From: a virus
Virus record (IMG/VR): IMGVR_UViG_3300037585_001448
Coordinates: 1 to 64,000 of that record
DNA length: 64,000 nucleotides
Strand: one strand, 5' to 3'
This document shows, piece after piece, positions 6,724 through 64,000 of this stretch. The notes beneath the pieces are model-generated. The model saw only the letters and a program-made list of their open reading frames with translations. It had not been told where the DNA came from and ran no database searches. Each line of letters starts with the position of its first letter. The first letter of the stretch is position 1. The position numbers and the translations under genes are program-made.

Positions 6724-7455
6724 TTACGAAGCAAGTTCCCGCTTGGCGCTTTCAAACGCCTCACGGATGGAAGAAACCTTTGCTGGAGCAGCCTGAGAGG
6801 AACCCGCTTGCTTCGACCCCGAAGGGGTCACCACACTCGCATCCCGTTTCGCCTCCGTACGCTCCTGCTCTTTCTCCAACTTCTGCGCCCGCCGCGACAC
6901 ATCGTCATAACGCATATGTGTCAATGCCGCCTCAAGATTCGTAATCTTGTTGGCTAACGCATGTTGGAAAAGATCCTGAGCGTCGAAATCGCCGTACTGC
7001 CCTTTCAAGTTTTCGACTTGCTTCTCTACCTGTTGTCGTCTGTGAACGCGGTCCTGTGCCGCCAACTTCTGCTCCAGTCCACGAATACGATCTTCGGTAG
7101 GGTCAGGGGTTTCATCACCCCATGCCGCACCGTAGGGATCAACCTCAGCCGCCTTGGGCGCCTGCCTAGTCGAAACCCCGAACGCATCCGCCAACGCTGA
7201 CATCGTCCCTTCCGGGTCCGATTCCAACGAAGTGACTATCGCTTCGGCTTGCTGCAACCTTTTGCGTTCGGATGCCAGTTCCTGCGTCTTACGGGTGTAA
7301 TCCGACTGTCGCTGGTATCCATCCCGAAGTTCCTCAAGGCTGACCTGCTCTTCTAAACCATCCACCTTCACGGTGTACGATTCAGCAGGTTCCTCCGAAA
7401 CCCCAACCGAAGAATCCGGACTATCCACCTCGGTGGGTTCCGTTGCATCTTCCAT
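6724..7455 (-). CDS. Capsid scaffolding protein
   Basis: YTVKVDGxEEQVSLEELRDGYQRQSDYTRKTQELA signature; AGGAGG RBS before ATG 7455. Confidence 0.85.
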   Translation of the reverse strand: MEDATEPTEVDSPDSSVGVSEEPAESYTVKVDGLEEQVSLEELRDGYQRQSDYTRKTQELASERKRLQQAEAIVTSLESDPEGTMSALADAFGVSTRQAPKAAEVDPYGAAWGDETPDPTEDRIRGLEQKLAAQDRVHRRQQVEKQVENLKGQYGDFDAQDLFQHALANKITNLEAALTHMRYDDVSRRAQKLEKEQERTEAKRDASVVTPSGSKQAGSSQAAPAKVSSIREAFESAKRELAS

Positions 7456-46646: not shown

Positions 46647-47233
46647 CTACCGCCTCACTCTGGATCGGTTGCTCGCCATCTGGCGGCTCTGCTTCGATTC
46701 TTCCGCTTCGATCTGAACCAACGCGACCCATTCCGTCATCTCAGCCGACGACATGCGATCTAGGAGTTCGCCTACCGTCATGCTGAGTTCACGGGCTAGT
46801 CGGAAGTAGAAGCGTCGCTCAGGGTTGAGTCGTCCACGGCTGTCGGGGAAGCCGAGGAATCTTTTCCCGCTTCGTCCACCGCCGTTTCTGACAATCCTGA
46901 CGCCGCCATACAAGCGTTGGCTAGGTCATTGACGATTCGTGCGTTGCGCTCAAACAGCCACTCTTGGTCGCCTTCCTCAAAGACCAGTTCACCGGATTCC
47001 GGGTCGTAACAGGTCTGAGAGATGACATGCCACCACATGCCTTCGATCCGGTCAGGATCGTTGACGTTGGTGGAACCATCAGGGTTGGCAATCTCCGCGA
47101 CAAACCGGGCGCGTGCCCGTGCGGTGATCGAACGAATCTCAACGGTGACACCCCACTCAGGGATCTCATAATCTTCGGTGCTGCTGTCGTCAGCAGCCTG
47201 AATCTTCTCGCTCAACTTGGACACGATGGTCAC
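46647..47233 (-). CDS. Tail assembly chaperone G/GT with -1 programmed frameshift
   Basis: Slippery G GGA AAA at 46869-46863 joins ORF 46796-47233 to the -1 frame GKRFL..LARELSMTV..SSAEMTEW. Confidence 0.8.
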
Positions 47234-47255
47234 TCCTCTTGTTGTGGGTTATTGC

Positions 47256-47663
47256 TTAGAACGTGGTGCGGGTTACCCCACCTGTGCATTGCAGGTCGAT
47301 GCTGTATGTCACAACGTCGCCGACCGGGTTGCTGACGGAGTAGTTGGTGAGAATACATTCGCCCGTGTATTTGACGTAGCCGGAAGTGCTGCCCGCCGGG
47401 CCAAAGATGAACGTCCGGGTCGCAGGCTCCGTGCCGATGATGTAACCGTCAATGGTTGCATCCCACAGGCCGCTCACCGAAATCGTCGCATCGCGAAGAC
47501 CAACGATGTACGACTTGGAGGTCGAACCGAAAGCCGTCGTTTCGGCTGTGTCGATCGTTTCGGGAAAGTCAACACTGGTGAGAGTGTCAGAAATGTCGCG
47601 GCTGGTACCACCTGTGTCGTCAAGCGAGAAGTTGGTTGCCTTGCCGTGTACGAAGGTTGGCAT
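47256..47663 (-). CDS. Major tail tube protein
   Basis: ETTAFG..YIVGLRDATISVSG; directly upstream of the chaperone gene. Confidence 0.75.
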   Translation of the reverse strand: MPTFVHGKATNFSLDDTGGTSRDISDTLTSVDFPETIDTAETTAFGSTSKSYIVGLRDATISVSGLWDATIDGYIIGTEPATRTFIFGPAGSTSGYVKYTGECILTNYSVSNPVGDVVTYSIDLQCTGGVTRTTF

Positions 47664-47675
47664 TGTTTGGTCCTC

Positions 47676-48443
47676 CTAGAACCTAGCGAAACTCACCATG
47701 AAGGTGATTGAACCGGATGACCCGGCACTGGTAGCGGTCGCTCGGACGTACCGGTTCACGGTCCCCGAGCAAACCACCATCTCCGATGTCTTGGCTCCTG
47801 CCCCGACAGCGGTGAATGAGATGAGATCGGCAGCCGACCCAAAGTCAGAAGCCGAATCATGTTGAACTTTGATAGTTGTGACGCCCCCGCCGACGCTGTT
47901 GACGGGAACGTGGAGCAGCGCGGCCCCGCCTGCGGTAGAGGCTGCCGAGCCGTCCACACCGGTCAACGCACCAAGGGCGTTGTAGTCGATCGACGTAGCC
48001 GTGGTCAACTGAACGCCTGCGGTGATCCCGTAGGTCATCGTCCCCAGCGTTCCAGAGTTGCTGGTGCCTTGAAAGTCGGCGGTGACCGTCGATACGTCTG
48101 CGACCGGGTTAGAGATCGCGTAGTTGGTTTCGTGAGTTCTGGCGATCGTGGCCCGGTTGCCGATCGTCCCGCCAGCCTCAGCAATCGTGATATTCGGTGC
48201 GGTCGCTGAACCGAGGATCGCTTGGAGTTCTTCATCAGAGCCGTCGGTGTCAGCGGTCCACATCCCGCTCATTGAAAGTGTGCCGTCGGCCAACCCCAAA
48301 ATGTACGCCTTTGAGGAATCGCCAAACGAAGTCACCTCCGCTGTCTCGTTCGTGAGCGTCACATCAGCGGTGTTGAAGTACGGCGTCATCACGAACTCGT
48401 CCAGATAAACGTCGGTGCCTTTCCCATGTACGAACGTGGGCAT
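47676..48443 (-). CDS. Tail-tube paralogue with extra C-terminal beta domain
   Basis: Same MPTFVHGK start and EVTSFG..YILGLADG motif. Confidence 0.65.
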   Translation of the reverse strand: MPTFVHGKGTDVYLDEFVMTPYFNTADVTLTNETAEVTSFGDSSKAYILGLADGTLSMSGMWTADTDGSDEELQAILGSATAPNITIAEAGGTIGNRATIARTHETNYAISNPVADVSTVTADFQGTSNSGTLGTMTYGITAGVQLTTATSIDYNALGALTGVDGSAASTAGGAALLHVPVNSVGGGVTTIKVQHDSASDFGSAADLISFTAVGAGAKTSEMVVCSGTVNRYVRATATSAGSSGSITFMVSFARF

Positions 48444-49081: not shown

Positions 49082-49489
49082 CTACGAGATCGTCTTCTGG
49101 CAGGTGAAGTTGATGGAGAACACCGCCCGGTCCTGACTGTCCCGCATGATCGGGAACGGCGACTGGATCGCTTGGATGCGTTCATACCGGGTGGAGGACA
49201 GGTCTTCGTTCGTGACAAGGTTCATCTTGTCGAACACATCCTTTGCCAGAGCACGGCCCGTCGAATACGACGACGCCCGGATCAGGGTTTGGACGTTGGG
49301 TTGTTCAATGACCGGAGCCGAGTTGTTCGACATGGTGTTGATCGGACCCTGACCGCCGGTTTCCTGAACGGAGACACAGGTGTCGGGGTCGTCGGGGAGG
49401 CGACCAAGGAACAGGTTGGTGCCGAGCGTCAATGTTACGTTTGTGACATTTGCTGCGAGGTAGGTGCCGACCTCATCCAGCACGCTCAT
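49082..49489 (-). CDS. Tail terminator / 'minor capsid' family protein
   Basis: LFLGRLPDDPD, PNVQ..RA and D..DR..FSINF. Confidence 0.75.
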   Translation of the reverse strand: MSVLDEVGTYLAANVTNVTLTLGTNLFLGRLPDDPDTCVSVQETGGQGPINTMSNNSAPVIEQPNVQTLIRASSYSTGRALAKDVFDKMNLVTNEDLSSTRYERIQAIQSPFPIMRDSQDRAVFSINFTCQKTIS

Positions 49490-49929
49490 CGGAGGTCACC
49501 TTGGATCTCTCGCATGAGTCGCCGCTCCATGCCTTGGGCAGCCATGAAGAACGGGAACTCCAAGAACTTGCCTTGCCCGGACTTCTGGTAATACTTCTTC
49601 TCCACCGGGTTCCACGCCAACCCCCGGTTCGTTGGAACGCCCGCTGTTTCGTGGACCTCTTTCGCATACGGCGTGTCGGCGTCTCCGACTGTCACAGCCG
49701 TTTCGTACACTCCCCCCACCGGGTTCGTCATGGGAGGAACCGTCGGTTCCTGCGCCACCGTGGACCTGAGGTAGCCGGTAGCGACCGGCACCAACCCGGT
49801 GACCGCTGTCTCCAACCGGTTGGCTTCCGTCCAGATCGCCCGCGCTGCCGTCTTCGGCAGGTTCTCAATGTCCTTGACCTTCTTGAAGAAGTCGCTCATG
49901 TCCAGATCGAACGAAGCGTTCTTAGCCAC
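49486..49929 (-). CDS. HK97 gp10-like neck protein
   Basis: VPVATGYLRS, PYAKEVHE and KFLE. Confidence 0.75.
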   Translation of the reverse strand: MAKNASFDLDMSDFFKKVKDIENLPKTAARAIWTEANRLETAVTGLVPVATGYLRSTVAQEPTVPPMTNPVGGVYETAVTVGDADTPYAKEVHETAGVPTNRGLAWNPVEKKYYQKSGQGKFLEFPFFMAAQGMERRLMREIQGDLR

Positions 49930-50284
49930 GGGTGTTCCTTCCGCAGAACACGACGACGCACTGTTGGCCGAAGTTGTCGGTGCGGCGCTCCACCTTGATG
50001 ATCGGGCGTACCGCTGAGATCGGAGCGGGAAGGGTGATCTCGTCTTCCGGGTTGATGTTCAGCGAATCATCAGGGATGAACACCTTGTATTCGGCGATGC
50101 GTTCCTCGTTCTCGTTGCGGATCACATCATCGGACTTCTCCACATAGGCCGAATACGAAGTGGTGGCCCCCGTGAACGCCCGTTCGCCATAGTTGTTGAG
50201 CGACGAAGTAGTACGAATCGCCACCGTGTCTGGCGTCATGTCGTTCTTGATGTCGGTCATAAACTGGATACTGGAAGCGGTCAT
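49922..50284 (-). CDS. Head closure protein
   Basis: Synteny; NNYGE motif. Confidence 0.6.
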   Translation of the reverse strand: MTASSIQFMTDIKNDMTPDTVAIRTTSSLNNYGERAFTGATTSYSAYVEKSDDVIRNENEERIAEYKVFIPDDSLNINPEDEITLPAPISAVRPIIKVERRTDNFGQQCVVVFCGRNTRG

Positions 50285-54553: not shown

Positions 54554-54805
54554 TTACTTGATGAACCGCCTGACACCCCACTCGGTAGCAAGCCTCTTCG
54601 CTTCCTTTCGGGTGATGATGTCAACACTGTTGGCTTCGCCGAACCGCCAGTCGTTCAACGTCAGGGTCGGCACCCAACCATCTGGGTGAAGCACCATGTC
54701 TTGCAGATACGACGGCCCTTCTTCACTCATGTAAAGAACAGTGTGCGTCCCATCAGGTGCCGTCCTCGCGTAGTAGGTGCGGGTGACGGTGGACCGTCGG
54801 GCCAT
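54554..54805 (-). CDS. Candidate immunity protein for the alarmone-synthetase domain
   Basis: 83 aa, YY..GW..DIITRKEAKRLA. Recalled resemblance to Tis1/IapK-type proteins, unverified. Confidence 0.45.
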   Translation of the reverse strand: MARRSTVTRTYYARTAPDGTHTVLYMSEEGPSYLQDMVLHPDGWVPTLTLNDWRFGEANSVDIITRKEAKRLATEWGVRRFIK

Positions 54806-55056
54806 CAGGCAGCGCCTACGTCGCGTGGCCCTACGTCTGGTGAGCCGACGAACCCGGTGAGGTCGGGCCACTCGCCGGGGATCTCCACGATGCCGCCCTC
54901 GTCGGCGATCTCCTTCATCTGCCGGGAGATGATCTTCCAACGACCTTCCATCATCGGCGACTTCGGCAACTCAGACCGAGGGTCGCCGTACTTCCACCCG
55001 GCTGAGATTTCCACCATCATCCGGTTGAGTTCTTCGCTGGTTGGTACTGCCATCAT
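54805..55056 (-). CDS. Small protein, candidate immunity/antitoxin
   Basis: Own TACACT -10 (55077-55082) and AAGGAG RBS; coupled to 54554-54805. Confidence 0.4.
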   Translation of the reverse strand: MMAVPTSEELNRMMVEISAGWKYGDPRSELPKSPMMEGRWKIISRQMKEIADEGGIVEIPGEWPDLTGFVGSPDVGPRDVGAA

Positions 55057-56498: not shown

Positions 56499-56863
56499 TA
56501 GATGATCCCCGCCTTGTCCAAGTAGTCGGCTGCGAACTTCATCGCCTCGTTGAAGGCTCCGGCGTCTAGCGACCATGCAGGTACGCCGCCGTGGAGGTTG
56601 AGTCCAGCGGTCTGGCACCGGTCCTCGTCCAGCAAGGTTGATGCGTAGTACCGGCTGGCGAACTGGCCGTGGCCGGGGAACGTCGGGTCGCAGTTCGGAC
56701 GGGTGTAGTCGTAGAACTCAACCATCGCGCCGTATGGCTTGCCGTCCGGGTCAACGCTGTCGTTGACCAGACATCCGTCGCGACCGTAGGTCTCTCCCTG
56801 TCGGACGATCTTGACGAGGAACACCTTGCCCTCGTCGTTGGTCACCTTGTGGAACTTGTTCAC
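56498..56863 (-). CDS. Hypothetical protein
   Basis: GQFASRYY..GLNLHGGVPAW; AAGGAG RBS. Confidence 0.6.
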   Translation of the reverse strand: MNKFHKVTNDEGKVFLVKIVRQGETYGRDGCLVNDSVDPDGKPYGAMVEFYDYTRPNCDPTFPGHGQFASRYYASTLLDEDRCQTAGLNLHGGVPAWSLDAGAFNEAMKFAADYLDKAGII

Positions 56864-56918
56864 TGTCTCTCCTTGTTGGTTGTCGGTTGGAACTCGTGGG
56901 CACCGGGGCAGCAAGCCT

Positions 56919-57374
56919 TCATTCGACGTACTCCCATTCGCCTAGACAATCCTGAATGAACAGGTCGTGGTTGAAGCACTTGGCGCAATCGCAACCCGCC
57001 TCGTACTCCCACTTCCCCTTGAACGGTTCGCCGGTCATGGTGTGCTGGTTGCGCCAACCCTTGACGGGCCGGTCCTTGGGGCGGGTCACCGCTGCCCGCT
57101 CACGGGCGTTGGCCTCTTCCCTCTCGCGCTGCTCCTGCTCCCGCTCTGCGATCAGCGCCTTGTCCTGCCGGTAAGCCGCGGCAACGTCAGCGGGATCGCC
57201 ACCGCCGTGAACCCAACTCATACCGAACTCTGCGTAATCCTCGGCTGCGTGCTGTGCATCCATGTATTCGTCACAGGCCGGGCACCGCTCTGGTCCCATG
57301 TGGACCTCGGTCTGGCTTTCCGAAAACTCTGTGGCCTCCGGTTCCGTCGTGCAGGTTGCGATGTGCTCGCTCAT
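56919..57374 (-). CDS. Hypothetical Cys-containing protein
   Basis: CxxC and CxCxxC motifs; GGAGG RBS. Confidence 0.55.
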   Translation of the reverse strand: MSEHIATCTTEPEATEFSESQTEVHMGPERCPACDEYMDAQHAAEDYAEFGMSWVHGGGDPADVAAAYRQDKALIAEREQEQREREEANARERAAVTRPKDRPVKGWRNQHTMTGEPFKGKWEYEAGCDCAKCFNHDLFIQDCLGEWEYVE

Positions 57375-57529
57375 CACTCGGCCTCCTTGATGTCGATGGT
57401 CGCCTTGGCTGCTGCCACCGTTGTCCACCGGGACTCACGGGGGAGCAGGGACAGGTACGGAGCATGAACAGTCACAACGCCATCGTCATCAGTTGTGATC
57501 TCATAGCCCTTGTAGGTGGTGGCGCTCAT
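57374..57529 (-). CDS. Small hypothetical protein (YKGYEI..)
   Basis: First gene after the promoter at 57569-57598. Confidence 0.5.
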   Translation of the reverse strand: MSATTYKGYEITTDDDGVVTVHAPYLSLLPRESRWTTVAAAKATIDIKEAE

Positions 57530-57568
57530 CACTGTCTCTCCTTGGTAGCCGGTCTCTGTCATGACCCC

Positions 57569-57598
57569 AGTGTAGCCTGATGTAGCGCCTTGACGCAA
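57569..57598 (-). promoter_or_regulatory. SigA-like promoter TTGCGT-N18-TACACT
   Basis: Read on the minus strand. Confidence 0.55.
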
Positions 57599-57603
57599 CA
57601 TGG

Positions 57604-58002
57604 TCACGCTGCCTTCCTCTTCCGACTGGCGAGGATCTCCCCCACCCGCTCTTCGTGTTCGGACTCCCCGACCCGCCGGGCCACCTTCGCCACCCGATCA
57701 GCCTTGAACACCCGCGTCCCGCAGCCCACCTTGTCCACGCCGTTCTTCGTGTACGGGCCGTAGCACTCCACGAGTTCCCCATCGTGGGGACTCACGATGA
57801 ACCGCCGGAACTTGAACCAGCCCGGCTTGCCGTACACCCGGAACCGTCGTCCCTTCACCAGCGGGAGGGTCGCCCCGTCGTACTGGTCGTGGAACTCCCA
57901 GCCCTCTGCTTCACGCTCGGCCTGCACCTCGGCGTAATGCTGCTGGTTGATCTTGACCCACTTCGCTGCGAGCGGTCGTGGGGCCGCTATCGGTTGTGCC
58001 AT
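57604..58002 (-). CDS. Hypothetical basic protein
   Basis: AAGGAG RBS before ATG 58002. Confidence 0.55.
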   Translation of the reverse strand: MAQPIAAPRPLAAKWVKINQQHYAEVQAEREAEGWEFHDQYDGATLPLVKGRRFRVYGKPGWFKFRRFIVSPHDGELVECYGPYTKNGVDKVGCGTRVFKADRVAKVARRVGESEHEERVGEILASRKRKAA

Positions 58003-58188
58003 GTCGTCTCTCCTTTTGGCTGGTGACTTCCTTCCACAAACACATTCTAGCATCTTGAAGCACGCTGCATTTTCGGGGTTCACCCCACCAAAACCTGACC
58101 TGCGGTTATGCCCGCGCGCGAAAACTGAACATGCAGGTCACAGCGTTACGAAAAAACTTTCAGAAAGTTTGCGGCTAGACTGGGCTAC

Positions 58189-58446
58189 ATGGCAACTCTG
58201 CTGAGGCCAGACCTCCCCACACCACAACTCTCCCGCGTGTTCGGGCATCTCAAAGACGACGCCCCATACGCCGACCTTGACGACGCCACCCGGACTGCGC
58301 TGGTCGATCGCGCCATGTCCCAAGGGGTTGCCTCGTTGACACCCTCAGAGCGTCAGATGATCGAAGACACCAACACCAACAGGCTCAAGAGGCTTCGACG
58401 CGGTGGGGTCAACTACGACATGCTCACCCAGCAACGAATCGACTAG
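58189..58446 (+). CDS. Small protein, candidate immunity protein (ART-like domain)
   Basis: Leaderless after TAGACT (58176-58181); weak paralogue of the next gene. Confidence 0.45.
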   Translation: MATLLRPDLPTPQLSRVFGHLKDDAPYADLDDATRTALVDRAMSQGVASLTPSERQMIEDTNTNRLKRLRRGGVNYDMLTQQRID

Positions 58447-58449
58447 CAG

Positions 58450-58689
58450 ATGGCTACCGACCCGATCACGCTGGACCGGCAAGCAGGACGCCTCGCAGCG
58501 TTTCTTCAACCCCAGCATCGCGGTGCGCTCGCCAAGACGGTTCTCGCCACCCCACCCGGCGACGACATCGCCGAGCCGTACCGGGGATGGTTGGAAGACC
58601 CCACGACCGTTCCTGTGATCGACCTTCTCAAGCCCTCAGAGTTGACGGCAGCCGACGCCGAGTGGATTCACGACGGAACCCGCGACTAG
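58450..58689 (+). CDS. Small protein, candidate immunity protein (ART-like domain)
   Basis: Convergent with the MuF gene; stop codons overlap at CTAG 58686-58689. Confidence 0.45.
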   Translation: MATDPITLDRQAGRLAAFLQPQHRGALAKTVLATPPGDDIAEPYRGWLEDPTTVPVIDLLKPSELTAADAEWIHDGTRD

Positions 58690-61600
58690 CCGACACTGAC
58701 CCCGACGGCGCTGCGATTGAGAATGACGTAGTAGTTGCCGGGGACTTCGGTGGTCGTCACCCCGGTACTAAAGTTGTACCCCGTCAACGTGGGCTTCACT
58801 ACTTCGATGATGTCCACCCCCTGCGACGCCGCATACCTGCCGACATCCGTGTAGAGCAGTTCAACAGTCTCTCCTAGACGCTTGAGTTCGGCCATTGCCT
58901 CCTTCACCGCTGGTTCGCTGAACCACGGATGGTCTGCCCCCGCTATGTCCTTCATACTTTCAACGGGCCAGTTCCTCATGTAGTCAGGGCCGAGGATCGT
59001 GTTGCCACGCTGGATGTCGATGTCGTCATACCTTTGCATCGCTTCCGTGACGCTCAGTGTCGTCTTCTTGATTTCTTCGATCTGGCTGTTGAGCGGTTGG
59101 GCTGCTTGAAGCATTTCTTGTTCTAACGGTTCGTACAGGGCGATCTTGGCGTCAGCCTCAACAACCATTTCAACAACGGTCCCGTGTTCCCAGTCTCCGC
59201 TACCGGTACCGATCCCGAACTTTTTTGTTGCGAAGTCATCAGCGATGTCCTCAACGTCGCTGGCGTAAGTACCGTTGCCGAACAGCCCTTGTCCCACATA
59301 GGTGGTGTCGCCGGGGTCGATGAACTCTTGGACGAACTGATCGACCTCCGCTCGCTCATTGGCACCGAAGCCGCGGTACAGAACTGTGCGCCCCTCTGCT
59401 ATGGCGTCTTCCATTTCCCCAACTGTCAACTGTTGGACGCCCGCGTCAGGCCACTGGGTTTTGATGATCTCCCGCAACGCCGGGTCGTTCGATACCTTTG
59501 GGTCGTTCCAACTGAGCCGGTTGTCGCCCGTCTTCGGCATGGACTCTATGACTTCTTCTACGTTGGCTACTTCGTCAAACCACTTCTCGGGCTTCGTCGC
59601 TTCGACCACACGCCCAACCGGCTGCTGTCCTTCGTTGATGAGCCGAGCGAACTCCTCAAGATCGTCAATCGTTTCCGATAAAGCCGAGGGATCGACAACC
59701 GGTGGTCTACCCGCTGCCCGCTGCCTGATCTCGGTGAGTGTGAAGTCCAACACCTCCGGCGATTCGGCTTGGGTGACGCGAGCCGCACGGATCATGTCGT
59801 TGACTCTCCCAACCTCAGGAAAGTCTAAGAGTTCGTCGGCCATGACAACAGCGTTCCGGTTCAAGAGAAGAACCTGACTGCTGTACGCTTCATCACCAGA
59901 CGAAATAAGCGTGTCAACAACAGCGTCGTAGCCGAGCAACGTCGCGATCGCCCCATCGTCGGCACGCGAAACCTTGACACCCTTGAAGCGGCCTTGCGCC
60001 CCCTGCATTTTGTCATTGACGACCAGCCGGTAGATCGACTGGAACGCCGGGTCGTCTATCGGGTCGCCGGTTTGTTTCGCTAAAGCAACCAGACCGAACG
60101 GGTCGTCACCCGTGTACCCCAACCGGTCCAGCGATGTGCCAACAGTTTCAATACTTGCCGAAGACGGCAGCCTGCCCGAGATATGTCCCGGTAGCACATC
60201 GTCAATCGTCCGGCCCCGGATGTCTCGTAGCGCCGACACCGCAGCGGTGGACGCATCATCTATCGCAAGGTCAGCGGCAACCTCAACGATCTCTTTCGCT
60301 TGGGCACCCATCGCCTGTTCGATAAGAGCAAGGTCGCTGCCCGTGACGGTCTTTGCGTCTGGTTGGAGCGCCGCACGAAGCACACCACCCGCCTCGTCCC
60401 CGCTCCAACCCTTTGAGTACGCCGCCGCCATGTCCATCGCGGTGTCCAACCCATCGCCATCGCCAAGGGTTCGCAAACCAGCCTCCGCGGAGGTCTCGCC
60501 AGCGTTGGAGAAGAAATAGGTACCGTCGCCGTAGTGGCCGGTCCCGGTGTGGAAGTCCCCGGATTGGAGTTCTTCAAGGAACTGGATGTTCTCGTCGCCG
60601 CGCAGCAACTCCAAGCCGCCTGATTCCAACACCTCGTCCAGTTCAGCGTCGGTTACCAGTTCAGGGAGGTCGTCAAACCCTCTGGCCCTGCGAAGATCCT
60701 CCAGTTGCGCCTTGACAGCGATCGTGTTGTCAGGGTCGGTGGGGTCAACTTTGACGCGGTATCTGACCCTTGTCGGGTCAGCGCGCGCATCGTCCAGCGT
60801 CGCCAAACCGCTATCAGTGACCATCCGTTTCGCCTTGTAATAGTCACGGTCGATCATCTCTTCTAACGCTTCGCGGGCTTGGGCCTCCCACGCAACCGCT
60901 ACCTGATCCAAGTTCGCACTCGTACCGAACGGGTCCACGAGATCAACGATGTCTTCAACATCCACGACCGGGCGCACAAAGTCCGGGTTCTTAGCAAGGA
61001 AGTCGTCGTACAGGTCCGGTCGAACAATGCGTTCCGATTCCCCGGCGATCTTCTCGTACACAAGGATCGGCTTTTCGCCCTGCGCGACGTTGTTGTCCCA
61101 CAACCTGATCTCATCGAACAGGTCGTCGGCTGCCGCTTGGGGGAACACTTCCGACACGCCAGCATGGGTGTCGCGTATCACCTGCTCTGGGACACGACGA
61201 CCGCTTCGCGCCCCTCGGGCTGCTGAACGGGCCACCGCTTCTTCGGTTTCGATCGTGACGTACTCGGCTGTCACTCGGGTGGAACTGGCACGGGCCTCAG
61301 CGACCTTCTTCTGCAACTTGGCGTAAGACGAATCGCCGGTACCGTCCAAGACAATGTTGTTGCTGCCGTCCAACGCTTCGCTCATCAACTGCTTGCCCAT
61401 GTACGACGACTCTTCATGCACATACGCCGCAGCGTTCACAGACCAGTCGCCGCGCTGGTCGATGATCTGGACGTATTCGGGAATCATGTCTTTGGCTTCG
61501 TCGGCGTTGACGAGCACATGACGATCAGGTAACACAATCGTGTCGGTGTTTGTGAGGCTGGACTTACCGGACGCCGGGCCACCCCCCATGAACACAACCT

Positions 61601-64000
61601 CGTTGGATTCGGTGTAGCCGCCCTTCGCTAACTCTGCTTCGATATATGGACGGTGAACGCCCTCAACACGCGACTCAATCCACTTGCCGTCCACGGTGTT
61701 GCGGGCCATTGTGTCGATCTCTGGCACAACGTCGTAGTCGGCTTTGCGAAGAAACTTGGCGTAAGCGTCCTCGTCGTAGATTTCCAGCAAGCCATCCTTC
61801 TTGCGGAGGATCAACTGGGGTGGATCAAAGTTCGTGTCCCACAGTTTGATGTCGTCAAAGATGTTCTCGTCCAGAATGTCGGGAAAGATCCGGCTGATAC
61901 TGGAATGGGTGTCTCGCACCACCTGTTCAGGGACGTACCGGCCTGTCCTGCGGCCACGGGCTGCCGCCCGGCGTACCGCCTCTTCGGTATCGACAGTCAC
62001 ATAGTCGGCGATGACGCGCTCACCGCTGCTGTTTGCCCGCGCTGACGACACCTTGCCCCGAAGTTTCTCAATGGACGAATCCCCGGTGCCGTCAAGCATC
62101 GTGTCGCGACCCGACTGAACCGACTCGGCCATGATCTCCTTGGAAAGCATGGATGACTCTTCGTGAACGTAGGCGGCAGCCTTCGTGTTGCTTTCCTTGG
62201 AAAGCACCTTGTATTCGGGAAGGTGTCCCTTGATTTCGTCGGCGTCAACGACGACCATCGTGTCCGGGTCGAAGTCGATCAACTTTTGCCTGATCGCTGT
62301 TCCCTTCCCTGACGCTGGACCGCCACCCATGAAGTGAACGACCTGTTCGCCCGGCTCGGCAACAGGAACGTCGCCGATGATGTCGGCTGCGATGTCCCGG
62401 TGAAGTTGCCTTCGGAGTTCCCAGTATTCGCCGTCGATCTGCGTGTACGCGTCTTCGGTGCCTCCCGGTAAGCGACCCCCGAACCGGTTGTAGAGGTCGT
62501 CGTCTGTTGCCAGCCGGTACGGGTTGGGTTCTTCGGGGAACCACTCAAGGTCCGTGACACGTTTCGGATGAGGGAGGTCGTCGGCGATGTCGGCAGCGGC
62601 CCGAACCAGACGCTTCTTCTCAATGTCGTCGATGCCTATTTGCCGGGACTTCTCGTAGTAGCCCCAAATCTTGTCTTTGACATCAAGGCTGTCTGGGGTG
62701 TGGAACTGGATTTCGATGATTACGCCGTCTGGGCCTCGGAAGTTTGCGTTGATGCCGTTGTACGGGTTCTTGGCGTTGGGTTGACGCCAGTAGTTCTTCG
62801 GTCCCTTGGTGAGTTCGTAGCCTCGGTCACGCAGGTCACGCATCGCTGCGGCGACATCATCGTTGTACCGGGCTTCGTCTATGACCATCGTGTACCGAAC
62901 AGAGTCGCTTACCTCGTCGGCGACCTCGGTTACCGTTCGTAGCCGCTGCGGGAACGCTGCCGTTTCGTCTACGAAGTCGGTGGCGATCTTGCGGGCCAGC
63001 GACGCTTCTTCCTTGACGTTGAACTGGAGGCCGTACAGGTCCGCTCCGATGTCGGACGCGGTGCCCTGCACCTGAGCGGTGATGTTGCCCTGCGCCGCGA
63101 ACGCCTTCTTGTGGATTCGGGTTGCTTCCCGCCACGCCTGCTCGCGTACCGCAGCAGGGATGTCCGGTGGTGCCATGACCTGACCGGGTAGCCCCGTGGA
63201 CGGTGGAACGATCGTGTCGTACACCACGGTCCAAGTGCAACGGCAGTTCGGGTGCGCTGGGGGCAGGTCTCGGGGTTCGACCACCCAGTTGCCGCCCCTT
63301 GGGTACGCAGCGTTGAACGATCCCCCCTCAAAGGCGACGACCTTGCCGTGAAGCGGTTCACAAATCTGGCACACCTCAAACGATGAGGTGATCCACTGAC
63401 GGCCAGCACGCTGCGGGTTGAACATTCCTGCTTCGGCTGCCTGCCGGGCTGCGACCATCTTGCCTTGGTTGGAGGCTTCCATCATCTCGGTGCGGGAGAT
63501 GACACGGGTTCGATGCTCGCGGAGTTTCTTGCCGTACTTGGATGCCTCACGTTCAACGGCTTCCAACGCCTGCTCGGTGGTCTTGCCTGCTGCGACCGCT
63601 TCCGCGAACACGGTGCGGCCCCGGTTCAAGACGGCGTTGTGTTGCGGCAGCGTCAACCCGGCTACCGAAGGAGCGAGTCGTTCACCGAACTCTGCTAGGT
63701 CACCCAGCGACGGTGCCGTCTCCAACACCTCGCCGAGCATGTTCATCATGGCTTGCCTGCCGCCCTTGCCGGTTGTGCCACCGATGATGTCTTGCAGGTT
63801 CGCTCGGGTGTCCTCAGCGATGTTGGTAATCAGCCGGGCTGATTTGTTTTCGGCCCACTGTTTCCCCGCCGGGGTTTTGGTGGAGAACCCGACAGAGAAC
63901 GACGACCCCACAGGTGGCATCAACGTCACCGTCTTCGGGGTTGCTGCCTTCTGGATCTGGTTGATGGCTGTCGGGTCTGGTTTGCGTTCCAGTTGCCCTA
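58686..64000 (-). CDS. MuF minor head protein fused to RelA/SpoT-like, two zeta-like kinase and two ADP-ribosyltransferase-like domains (5' truncated)
   Basis: RTE..CQIC..PPAHPNCRC (MuF); KEEASLARK, DSVRYT, YNGIN, EIQFHT (synthetase); GGGPASGK x2 with HEESS and LDGT (zeta-like); RG..GxGxY/FGxGTY..LNR x2 (ART-like). Frame is open to base 64000. Confidence 0.85.
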   Translation of the reverse strand, partial: GQLERKPDPTAINQIQKAATPKTVTLMPPVGSSFSVGFSTKTPAGKQWAENKSARLITNIAEDTRANLQDIIGGTTGKGGRQAMMNMLGEVLETAPSLGDLAEFGERLAPSVAGLTLPQHNAVLNRGRTVFAEAVAAGKTTEQALEAVEREASKYGKKLREHRTRVISRTEMMEASNQGKMVAARQAAEAGMFNPQRAGRQWITSSFEVCQICEPLHGKVVAFEGGSFNAAYPRGGNWVVEPRDLPPAHPNCRCTWTVVYDTIVPPSTGLPGQVMAPPDIPAAVREQAWREATRIHKKAFAAQGNITAQVQGTASDIGADLYGLQFNVKEEASLARKIATDFVDETAAFPQRLRTVTEVADEVSDSVRYTMVIDEARYNDDVAAAMRDLRDRGYELTKGPKNYWRQPNAKNPYNGINANFRGPDGVIIEIQFHTPDSLDVKDKIWGYYEKSRQIGIDDIEKKRLVRAAADIADDLPHPKRVTDLEWFPEEPNPYRLATDDDLYNRFGGRLPGGTEDAYTQIDGEYWELRRQLHRDIAADIIGDVPVAEPGEQVVHFMGGGPASGKGTAIRQKLIDFDPDTMVVVDADEIKGHLPEYKVLSKESNTKAAAYVHEESSMLSKEIMAESVQSGRDTMLDGTGDSSIEKLRGKVSSARANSSGERVIADYVTVDTEEAVRRAAARGRRTGRYVPEQVVRDTHSSISRIFPDILDENIFDDIKLWDTNFDPPQLILRKKDGLLEIYDEDAYAKFLRKADYDVVPEIDTMARNTVDGKWIESRVEGVHRPYIEAELAKGGYTESNEVVFMGGGPASGKSSLTNTDTIVLPDRHVLVNADEAKDMIPEYVQIIDQRGDWSVNAAAYVHEESSYMGKQLMSEALDGSNNIVLDGTGDSSYAKLQKKVAEARASSTRVTAEYVTIETEEAVARSAARGARSGRRVPEQVIRDTHAGVSEVFPQAAADDLFDEIRLWDNNVAQGEKPILVYEKIAGESERIVRPDLYDDFLAKNPDFVRPVVDVEDIVDLVDPFGTSANLDQVAVAWEAQAREALEEMIDRDYYKAKRMVTDSGLATLDDARADPTRVRYRVKVDPTDPDNTIAVKAQLEDLRRARGFDDLPELVTDAELDEVLESGGLELLRGDENIQFLEELQSGDFHTGTGHYGDGTYFFSNAGETSAEAGLRTLGDGDGLDTAMDMAAAYSKGWSGDEAGGVLRAALQPDAKTVTGSDLALIEQAMGAQAKEIVEVAADLAIDDASTAAVSALRDIRGRTIDDVLPGHISGRLPSSASIETVGTSLDRLGYTGDDPFGLVALAKQTGDPIDDPAFQSIYRLVVNDKMQGAQGRFKGVKVSRADDGAIATLLGYDAVVDTLISSGDEAYSSQVLLLNRNAVVMADELLDFPEVGRVNDMIRAARVTQAESPEVLDFTLTEIRQRAAGRPPVVDPSALSETIDDLEEFARLINEGQQPVGRVVEATKPEKWFDEVANVEEVIESMPKTGDNRLSWNDPKVSNDPALREIIKTQWPDAGVQQLTVGEMEDAIAEGRTVLYRGFGANERAEVDQFVQEFIDPGDTTYVGQGLFGNGTYASDVEDIADDFATKKFGIGTGSGDWEHGTVVEMVVEADAKIALYEPLEQEMLQAAQPLNSQIEEIKKTTLSVTEAMQRYDDIDIQRGNTILGPDYMRNWPVESMKDIAGADHPWFSEPAVKEAMAELKRLGETVELLYTDVGRYAASQGVDIIEVVKPTLTGYNFSTGVTTTEVPGNYYVILNRSAVGVSVG

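Follow-up and report, generated by a model that had tools for sequence, protein, structure and literature searches.

Two inverted small genes beside a MuF-fused phage gene as candidate cognate partners of its tandem ART-like domains

MuF-fused and polyvalent phage head proteins are thought to be injected effectors, but how they are tolerated by the cell that makes them has been worked out in very few cases, such as Apk2 with IapK and Aph1. The locus described here raises this question anew, as two small plus-strand genes, ORF1 and ORF2, lie embedded in a long run of minus-strand genes and converge on a large MuF gene, the product of which ends in two ART-like domains, A and B. Are these small genes genuine, does each belong to one of the two domains, and might their products restrain them? 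The window, that is, the whole stretch of 64,000 nucleotides that was analysed, covers the initial 64 kb of an IMG/VR virus record 93,140 bp in length, and its features are collected in Table 1. A preliminary description of this DNA had proposed that ORF1 and ORF2 are paralogues and that each provides the immunity protein for one of the duplicated domains.

Table 1. Positions of the features discussed, in window coordinates unless a contig or the record is named
Feature	Position	Strand	Description
ORF1	58189-58446	+	85 aa; three helices predicted; candidate partner of ART-like domain A
ORF2	58450-58689	+	79 aa; helical, acidic; proposed partner of ART-like domain B
CTAG	58686-58689	both	TAG stops of ORF2 (+) and of the big MuF gene (-)
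MuF-fused polyvalent toxin gene	58686-64000 in the window; 58686-64376 on the record	-	1896 aa
ART-like domain B	58689-59717	-	C-terminal ~343 aa of the MuF protein
ART-like domain A	59739-60821	-	Diverged duplicate of domain B
TAGACT, -10-like hexamer	58176-58181	+	7 nt before the ORF1 ATG (58189); leaderless-type
15-bp palindrome AACTTTC-A-GAAAGTT (AACTTTCAGAAAGTT)	58155-58169		Upstream of ORF1, at a -35 or operator position
TGCTAGAAT, extended -10-like, conserved	58044-58052	-	From the alignment of five relatives; faces the 132-aa gene at 57604-58002
Alternative C-terminal cassette of L008	L008:6787-8800	-	~590-aa region with DUF3626 (PF12294)

Judged by their sequences, ORF1 and ORF2 are genuine protein-coding genes, because the GC content of their codon positions is coding-like and their dN/dS is about 0.12. 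At codon positions 1/2/3, GC was 0.64/0.44/0.73 in ORF1 and 0.71/0.50/0.74 in ORF2, with 0.62/0.47/0.68 in the long genes of the phage as the reference, and dN/dS against the metagenomic relatives L005 and L006 was 0.12 for each of the two; against the 51%-identical copy in contig L008, ORF1 gave a dN/dS of 0.30-0.32. The annotated frame had the top score in a six-frame comparison for both genes, and the codon score of ORF1 was low, below the 5th percentile of in-frame windows. Relatives in the protein database form six clusters for ORF1 (74-95% identity) and two for ORF2 (87-96% identity), and a metagenome scan yielded five contigs with DNA; ORF1 is kept in three marine contigs, L005, L006, and L007, and ORF2 also in L005 and L006. 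The sources of the relatives are marine metagenomes (Tara CEPX/CEPZ and the JGI contigs Ga0114898, Ga0256382, and Ga0310345).

A gap of 3 nt separates the two genes, the junction reading TAG-CAG-ATG, and the stop overlap of ORF2 with the MuF gene is also present in L005 and L006. The two small plus-strand genes and their CTAG overlap with the toxin gene were thus found where the preliminary description had placed them, and its statement that they are the only plus-strand genes of the phage, which it called phage B, is consistent within the window. Plus-strand ORFs at 47217-47711 and 49450-49998 were considered and rejected as genes, as their GC3 is non-coding and they overlap minus-strand ORFs with coding-like GC3.

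The MuF gene begins where the upstream 442-aa portal gene (Portal_Mu, E=8.7e-34) ends. Its product contains a MuF domain (Pfam Phage_Mu_F, PF04233; E=8.6e-8, 33.3 bits against a cut-off of 29.6), an RSH-like region, two zeta-toxin domains (Zeta_toxin, PF06414; E=9e-41, in two stretches at 550-720 and about 800-950 of P0003), and, in its last ~710 residues, two weakly similar domains, A then B. The region at 62499-63161 (minus strand), previously taken to be of the RelA/SpoT (alarmone synthetase) type, could not be upheld as such, since Pfam RelA_SpoT was unmatched in both a protein search and a six-frame search of the record; with its EIQFHT motif, it matches PHROG 'head morphogenesis' families only (phrog_7625 and phrog_2859) and is RSH-like by motif only.

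Domains A and B align by BLASTP with E=0.007 and 26% identity over 167 residues and have in common the motifs RG, GxGxxGxGTY, GYDA, and LNR, which hold the invariant residues of the family. An exhaustive HMMER search with domain B gave 107 representative proteins (E<=0.001), and Phage_Mu_F is present in 22 of 43 aligned relatives. Neither domain had a match in Pfam at E<=10, ART-PolyVal (PF18760) and PARP (PF00644) included. Short relatives in the family gave sub-threshold matches on the GxGxY segment (PARP, E=0.0018-0.05; ART-PolyVal, E=0.14-0.18), and the clusters nearest domain B in an ESM Atlas feature search carry ART-PolyVal (score 0.92, 173 shared features). The profile of the ART-like family had no match among PDB sequences, and the single domains gave only noise against PDB. 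The two domains described earlier as ART-like are, accordingly, diverged duplicates by the BLASTP alignment, and their ART-likeness is plausible only, the profile matches being sub-threshold; we regard the ART/PARP-like assignment as a reasonable lead and not as an established membership.

The preliminary description had suggested looking at whether homologues of the small genes neighbour the ART-like domain. For this, 34 IMG/VR loci were retrieved by the ART-like domain alone, and all of their 2,540 ORFs of at least 35 aa were searched with profiles of ORF1 and ORF2. The ORF2 profile matched an ORF in L014 (6015-6287, E=9e-6), which is convergent with the toxin gene and lies 3 nt from its stop, as in the window, and an ORF in L013 (5744-5989, E=1.2e-5), which has the same orientation as the toxin gene and overlaps its stop by 4 nt; weaker matches, in L011/12, L017-20, and L021/22, were all the ORF directly after the ART-like gene. 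The matches lie from -4 to +11 nt from the stop of the ART gene and have the motif [DN]-x-[IVM]-P-E-P-[YF]-[RH]-x-W-[LI] in common, the motif of the ORF2 family being D-I-A-E-P-Y-R-G-W-L-E-D-P. A position-blind iterative search of the ORFs of these loci, seeded with ORF2 (inclusion at E<1e-3), converged on 14 ORFs, all 14 of which abut an ART-like gene in one orientation or the other; among the sub-threshold ORFs (E up to 0.23), 10 of 11 were also the adjacent ORF. Furthermore, the other adjacent small ORFs, grouped by position only, reached a probability of 96% (P=3.2e-9) in hhalign against the strict ORF2 family. ORF2 homologues hence adjoin B-type domains in many unrelated contigs, and a family member stands at the 3' end of the toxin gene in some 15 of about 19 distinct lineages in which this end is on the contig; the lineages without an adjacent member mostly have giant polyvalent proteins with an internal domain (L015 and L037).

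Two of these arrangements deserve separate mention. In L011 (2390-3007) and L012 (5587-6204), the partner is a 205-aa protein with a PEPYHSW-type N-terminal domain and a ParB-like (DGHHR) C-terminal extension, the latter matching phrog_1033 (E=9e-5); this extension apart, the adjacent small partner proteins had no match in Pfam or PHROGs. In L037, where the ART-like domain is internal, a convergent 73-aa ORF (7010-7231, minus strand) overlaps the stop of the 2336-aa polyvalent protein by 4 nt, with a geometry like that of the window and an unrelated sequence.

Beyond its own clade, the ORF1 profile had a sole match, L035_3873-4115 (E=2.5e-11), which is convergent and lies 35 nt past the stop of a MuF gene for an 841-aa protein. 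This protein ends in a domain of the A type, which scores 66.6 bits against A (residues 36-337) and 12 bits against B, whereas the loci with PEPYRxW-type partners have B-type domains, scoring 37-51 bits against B and 8-17 bits against A. None of the other neighbour genes of the window is present in L035, so the sole neighbour common to ORF1-family genes is a MuF gene with an A-type domain. The pairing of ORF1, which is not adjacent to the coding region of domain A itself, with this domain draws on three lineages only, namely, the clade of the window, L008, and L035.

The paralogy of ORF1 and ORF2, proposed earlier from a weak alignment, was recovered in the same register by wide-family hhalign, but not by BLASTP, which gave no alignment at E<=100, nor by narrow profiles, for which the hhalign probability was 0.3%. 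With widened families, residues 11-63 of ORF1 align to residues 5-53 of ORF2, with P values for ORF1 of 1.8e-4 against the broad family, 0.001 against an intermediate group, and 0.0059 against the strict ORF2 family. Reversed, direction-mismatched controls gave P=0.26-0.32, and none of 200 column-shuffled controls exceeded a score of 14.4, against an observed score of 25.8. The aligned segments coincide with predicted helices, at residues 11-21, 32-45, and 52-71 in the AlphaFold2 model of ORF1 (pLDDT 90.2), which also has a basic tail, and at residues 5-18, 21-33, and 42-49 in the predicted structure of ORF2 (pLDDT 67). We thus regard ORF1 and ORF2, with moderate confidence, as remote homologues in one unannotated small helical family, of which ORF2 is the seed; ORF1 joins the adjacent-partner family via profile-profile comparison and the position of its L035 homologue only.

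For the small proteins, Pfam, PHROGs, GenBank phages (tblastn), single-sequence scans of IMG/VR, and the ESM Atlas provided no annotation, and fold searches with ORF1 and ORF2 (Foldseek against PDB and BFVD; VIA-align wide) gave noise only, the highest Z being 4.7-4.8. In Pfam, PHROGs, PDB, and BFVD, they match no known family or fold, whether of immunity proteins, antitoxins, or others. Absence of fold matches is common for immunity proteins. A single contig-scan match, which would have made ORF1 a relative of spirochaete sigma-70 region 4, was seeded by the pattern TP[SA]E[RH]Q[MI]IE; we ascribe it to chance or to the pattern, ORF1 being too short for the HTH.

A further relation between the small genes and the domains emerges from L008, a 9.7-kb contig in which an ORF1 homologue has 51% identity to ORF1 from end to end. 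The blastn match between the window and L008 spans the promoter and ORF1 to 58449 and ends 3 nt after the ORF1 stop, and the toxin proteins of the two are 44% identical through domain A to the linker 'FTLTEIR' (~59718), after which they diverge completely. Between these breakpoints, the window has ORF2 and domain B, and L008 has another C-terminal region, with a DUF3626 match of 34 bits against a cut-off of 27, and another small gene, an 81-aa ORF (P0017) that is unrelated to ORF2, lies on the same strand as the toxin gene, and begins 10 nt past its stop. ORF1 stays with domain A in L008. The homology breakpoints thus indicate that the C-terminal domain and the adjacent small gene form one exchangeable cassette, which in the window would comprise ORF2 and domain B from 58450 to ~59717. 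By analogy, the swapping of a domain together with its small gene is a signature of polymorphic toxin-immunity modules. The DUF3626 region and the 81-aa ORF of L008 may be regarded as a second candidate toxin-immunity pair.

Taken with the linkage and the matching of subtypes, the joint exchange in L008 supports the view that each small protein is a cognate partner, ORF1 of domain A and ORF2 of domain B. Of the earlier claim of one cognate immunity protein per domain, it is this pairing that gained support, while immunity follows by analogy only.

The arrangement upstream of ORF1 suggests how the pair may be expressed. The leaderless TAGACT-N7-ATG start described earlier is present before ORF1 as an arrangement of the sequence, with no Shine-Dalgarno sequence, and the hexamer is invariant across L005-L009 except for one base in L005. 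The ORF1 homologue of L035 has TAGACT 6 nt upstream of its ATG, and the inverted partner gene of L014 has TAGAAT 9 nt upstream of its ATG; TAGACT or TAGAAT accordingly precedes the ATG by 6-9 nt in three independent inverted partner genes, against a background in which TANNNT lies 6-8 nt upstream at 1.1% of all ATGs in the record. Leaderless-type transcription by host sigma occurs in Actinobacteria. The signals fit a host-sigma, leaderless-type transcription of the pair independent of the late operon, and the recurrence of the -10-like hexamer at the inverted partners of L035 and L014 agrees with the independent transcription that had been proposed for the pair. A scan of 57400-59400 for sigma-70 consensus promoters gave no match.

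The 15-bp palindrome is identical in L007, L008, and L009 and degenerate in L005; it has no second good copy anywhere in the window, and no regulon is therefore claimed. The 65 bp upstream of ORF1 are nearly invariant even in L008, where ORF1 is 70% identical at the DNA level, and within the intergenic stretch 58004-58188 the blocks CCACAAACACATTCTAGCAT, with the leftward TGCTAGAAT, and CAGGTCACAGCGTTACGAAAAAACTTTCAGAAAGTT, with the palindrome, are more conserved than the flanking genes. The element TGCTAGAAT could restart the leftward transcription of the minus-strand genes past the inverted pair. In L009, the intergenic stretch is longer by ~240 bp, the additional sequence (L009 1366-1628) falling between 58018 and 58039 of the window.

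Considering these results, we propose that ORF1 and ORF2 may be translationally coupled genes that converge on the MuF gene and are transcribed from a separate promoter of the host type (-10 only, leaderless), and that they belong to a small helical family that is genetically coupled to a family of MuF-associated ART/PARP-like C-terminal domains. The locus may have originated by the stacking of two cassettes, each made of a domain and an inverted partner. In the simplest history, a module of domain A with inverted ORF1, as in L035, would be ancestral, a module of domain B with inverted ORF2, as in L014, would later have been inserted between the end of domain A and ORF1, and L008 would have received a different cassette at the same insertion site. 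Each partner would act by binding and inhibiting the domain that it matches while both are still in the producing cell, ahead of the packaging of the MuF protein into the head and its injection. A separate promoter could give the pair a second use, namely, turning off the injected enzyme at an early stage of the following infection. Immunity-type inhibition of the cognate domains by ORF1 and ORF2 is, in our judgement, the probable function, by analogy with toxin-immunity modules, because domain and small gene behave as a cassette, adjoin each other tightly in either orientation, and match in subtype. The coding status, the linkage, the exchange of cassettes, and the matching of subtypes are seen in the sequences, whereas we infer the inhibition, the timing of expression, and the ADP-ribosyltransferase activity.

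A more general proposal, which we put forward only tentatively and consider rather doubtful, is that the small helical family is widespread and that its members inhibit ART-like domains packaged into the head, each being specific for one subtype. In some phages, the genes would have come to lie inverted under a host-sigma leaderless promoter, and the inhibitors would be made at the start of infection or constitutively, acting as a timer that switches off the just-injected enzyme and protects late assembly, and two such modules would be stacked at the present locus. Counting against immunity in general, head-packaged ARTs such as T4 Alt are not known to need it.

The genetic evidence could also be read as showing specific partners of the ART-like domains whose role is that of a chaperone, a packaging adaptor, or an activating cofactor, and which may be packaged with them. 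Linkage and co-variation show specificity and not the sign of an effect, and they fit such roles equally well. In most loci, moreover, the partner either has a 4-nt overlap with the MuF stop or closely follows it and would therefore be made together with the late head proteins, and MuF-fused, MuF-ART, and polyvalent effectors are usually described without immunity genes (PMC5512222, PMC9503650). However, the inverted copies of the window, L035, and L014, each with its own -10-type promoter, are uncoupled from the late operon, which would be odd for an assembly factor, and adjacent small genes that are swapped with the toxin domain are a hallmark of immunity genes in polymorphic toxins (PMC5576092, PMC12226406). 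We consider a chaperone, adaptor, or cofactor role unlikely on this balance.

Still less probable, in our view, is that ORF1 and ORF2 are small regulators or 'moron' genes, for example HTH-like binders at the palindrome, and that their adjacency to the toxin gene is mere synteny. ORF1 is a three-helix protein with a basic tail, the conserved palindrome overlaps its promoter, weak structural similarity to the DNA-binding proteins Aca11 (Z=3.5) and C.EcoT38IS (Z=2.9) was seen, and the region between the MuF and protease genes is a variable accessory region. All of the structural matches are at noise level, however, and the family adjoins the ART-like domain across more than 15 otherwise unrelated phage lineages and in both orientations; ORF2 is, besides, swapped along with domain B, and the subtype of the partner tracks that of the domain. 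Autoregulation by an antitoxin-like partner would be compatible with immunity-type inhibition.

That the plus-strand transcript acts mainly as an antisense RNA or by transcriptional interference on the toxin gene or the late operon, with the ORFs incidental, is highly improbable: the 3' ends do meet without a gap, and the junction has no terminator-like hairpin, but purifying selection acts strongly at the protein level (dN/dS 0.12), conservation of the proteins extends to homologues with as little as 25-30% identity, and most homologues lie on the toxin gene's own strand, where an antisense effect is impossible. The antisense damping of the toxin gene that the preliminary description had added to its proposal is pure speculation.

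Immunity-type inhibition, the reading that we prefer, can be compared with three known systems. Like the MuF polymorphic toxin-immunity modules (Jamet et al., 2017, PMC5576092; Apk2-IapK-Aph1, PMC12226406), the present locus has its toxin gene directly after the portal gene, an N-terminal MuF domain, and variable C-terminal enzymatic domains that are exchanged between relatives with an adjacent ORF of less than 150 aa. The toxicity of MuF-Apk2 is neutralised by the downstream genes iapK and aph1, which are also a precedent for more than one protective gene per toxin gene (PMC12226406). Neutralisation is thus known for Apk2, whereas immunity at the present locus is proposed, by analogy, from gene linkage and co-variation. 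Here the partners have a leaderless-type promoter of their own and run opposite to the toxin gene, whereas those of MuF modules are usually downstream on the same strand; two homologous partners here face two tandem homologous domains; and the partners belong to an unannotated family that has no relationship to IapK or Aph1. In addition, MuF toxins have been reported almost only in temperate phages, whereas the 93-kb record, which may be chimeric or incomplete for phage B, had no match to Phage_integrase or Resolvase, and the lysogen-protection rationale of the MuF-toxin model is therefore not evident here.

With the phage polyvalent proteins that carry ART domains (Iyer et al., 2017, PMC5512222; PF18760), the locus shares a very large, head-associated stack of several effectors, here MuF, two zeta-type kinases, and two ART-like domains, which is presumably packaged and injected, and the ESM Atlas clusters nearest domain B likewise point to ART-PolyVal. 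It differs from them in that the Pfam ART-PolyVal and PARP models give no reportable score on the domains of the window, and dedicated small partner genes do not appear in the accessible part of the published description (PMC5512222). The type II toxin-antitoxin pairs with ART toxins (DarT-DarG, PMC9503650) resemble the locus in having a small linked product that is presumed to counter an enzyme of the ART superfamily, and the palindrome at the promoter of the partner here may likewise be autoregulatory. Unlike in those pairs, the toxin is not free but forms a domain of a structural head protein, the partner is no macrodomain hydrolase and has no recognisable DNA-binding domain, and the genes converge instead of forming an operon.

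The locus provides a candidate inhibitor family for a common, putatively ART/PARP-like cargo domain of MuF proteins, together with a clean example of the exchange of a domain and its partner as a cassette. The pairs ORF1/A and ORF2/B constitute a natural two-by-two specificity matrix inside one phage, and the inverted, separately promoted layout raises the possibility that phages control when the enzymes that they inject are active. Should the partners bind, they could be useful tools for assigning activity and targets to the ART-like domain family.

Two further stretches of the window may be recorded. Between the DUF2786 gene and the 132-aa gene, at 56523-57573, the small genes differ among close relatives; judging from the gaps that this stretch leaves in the blastn matches to L005-L009, it is a hypervariable accessory region inside the head module. 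At 54554-55056 (minus strand), two ORFs of ~83 aa with no Pfam match sit in a segment that is conserved in L008 (53001-55044, 75% identity).
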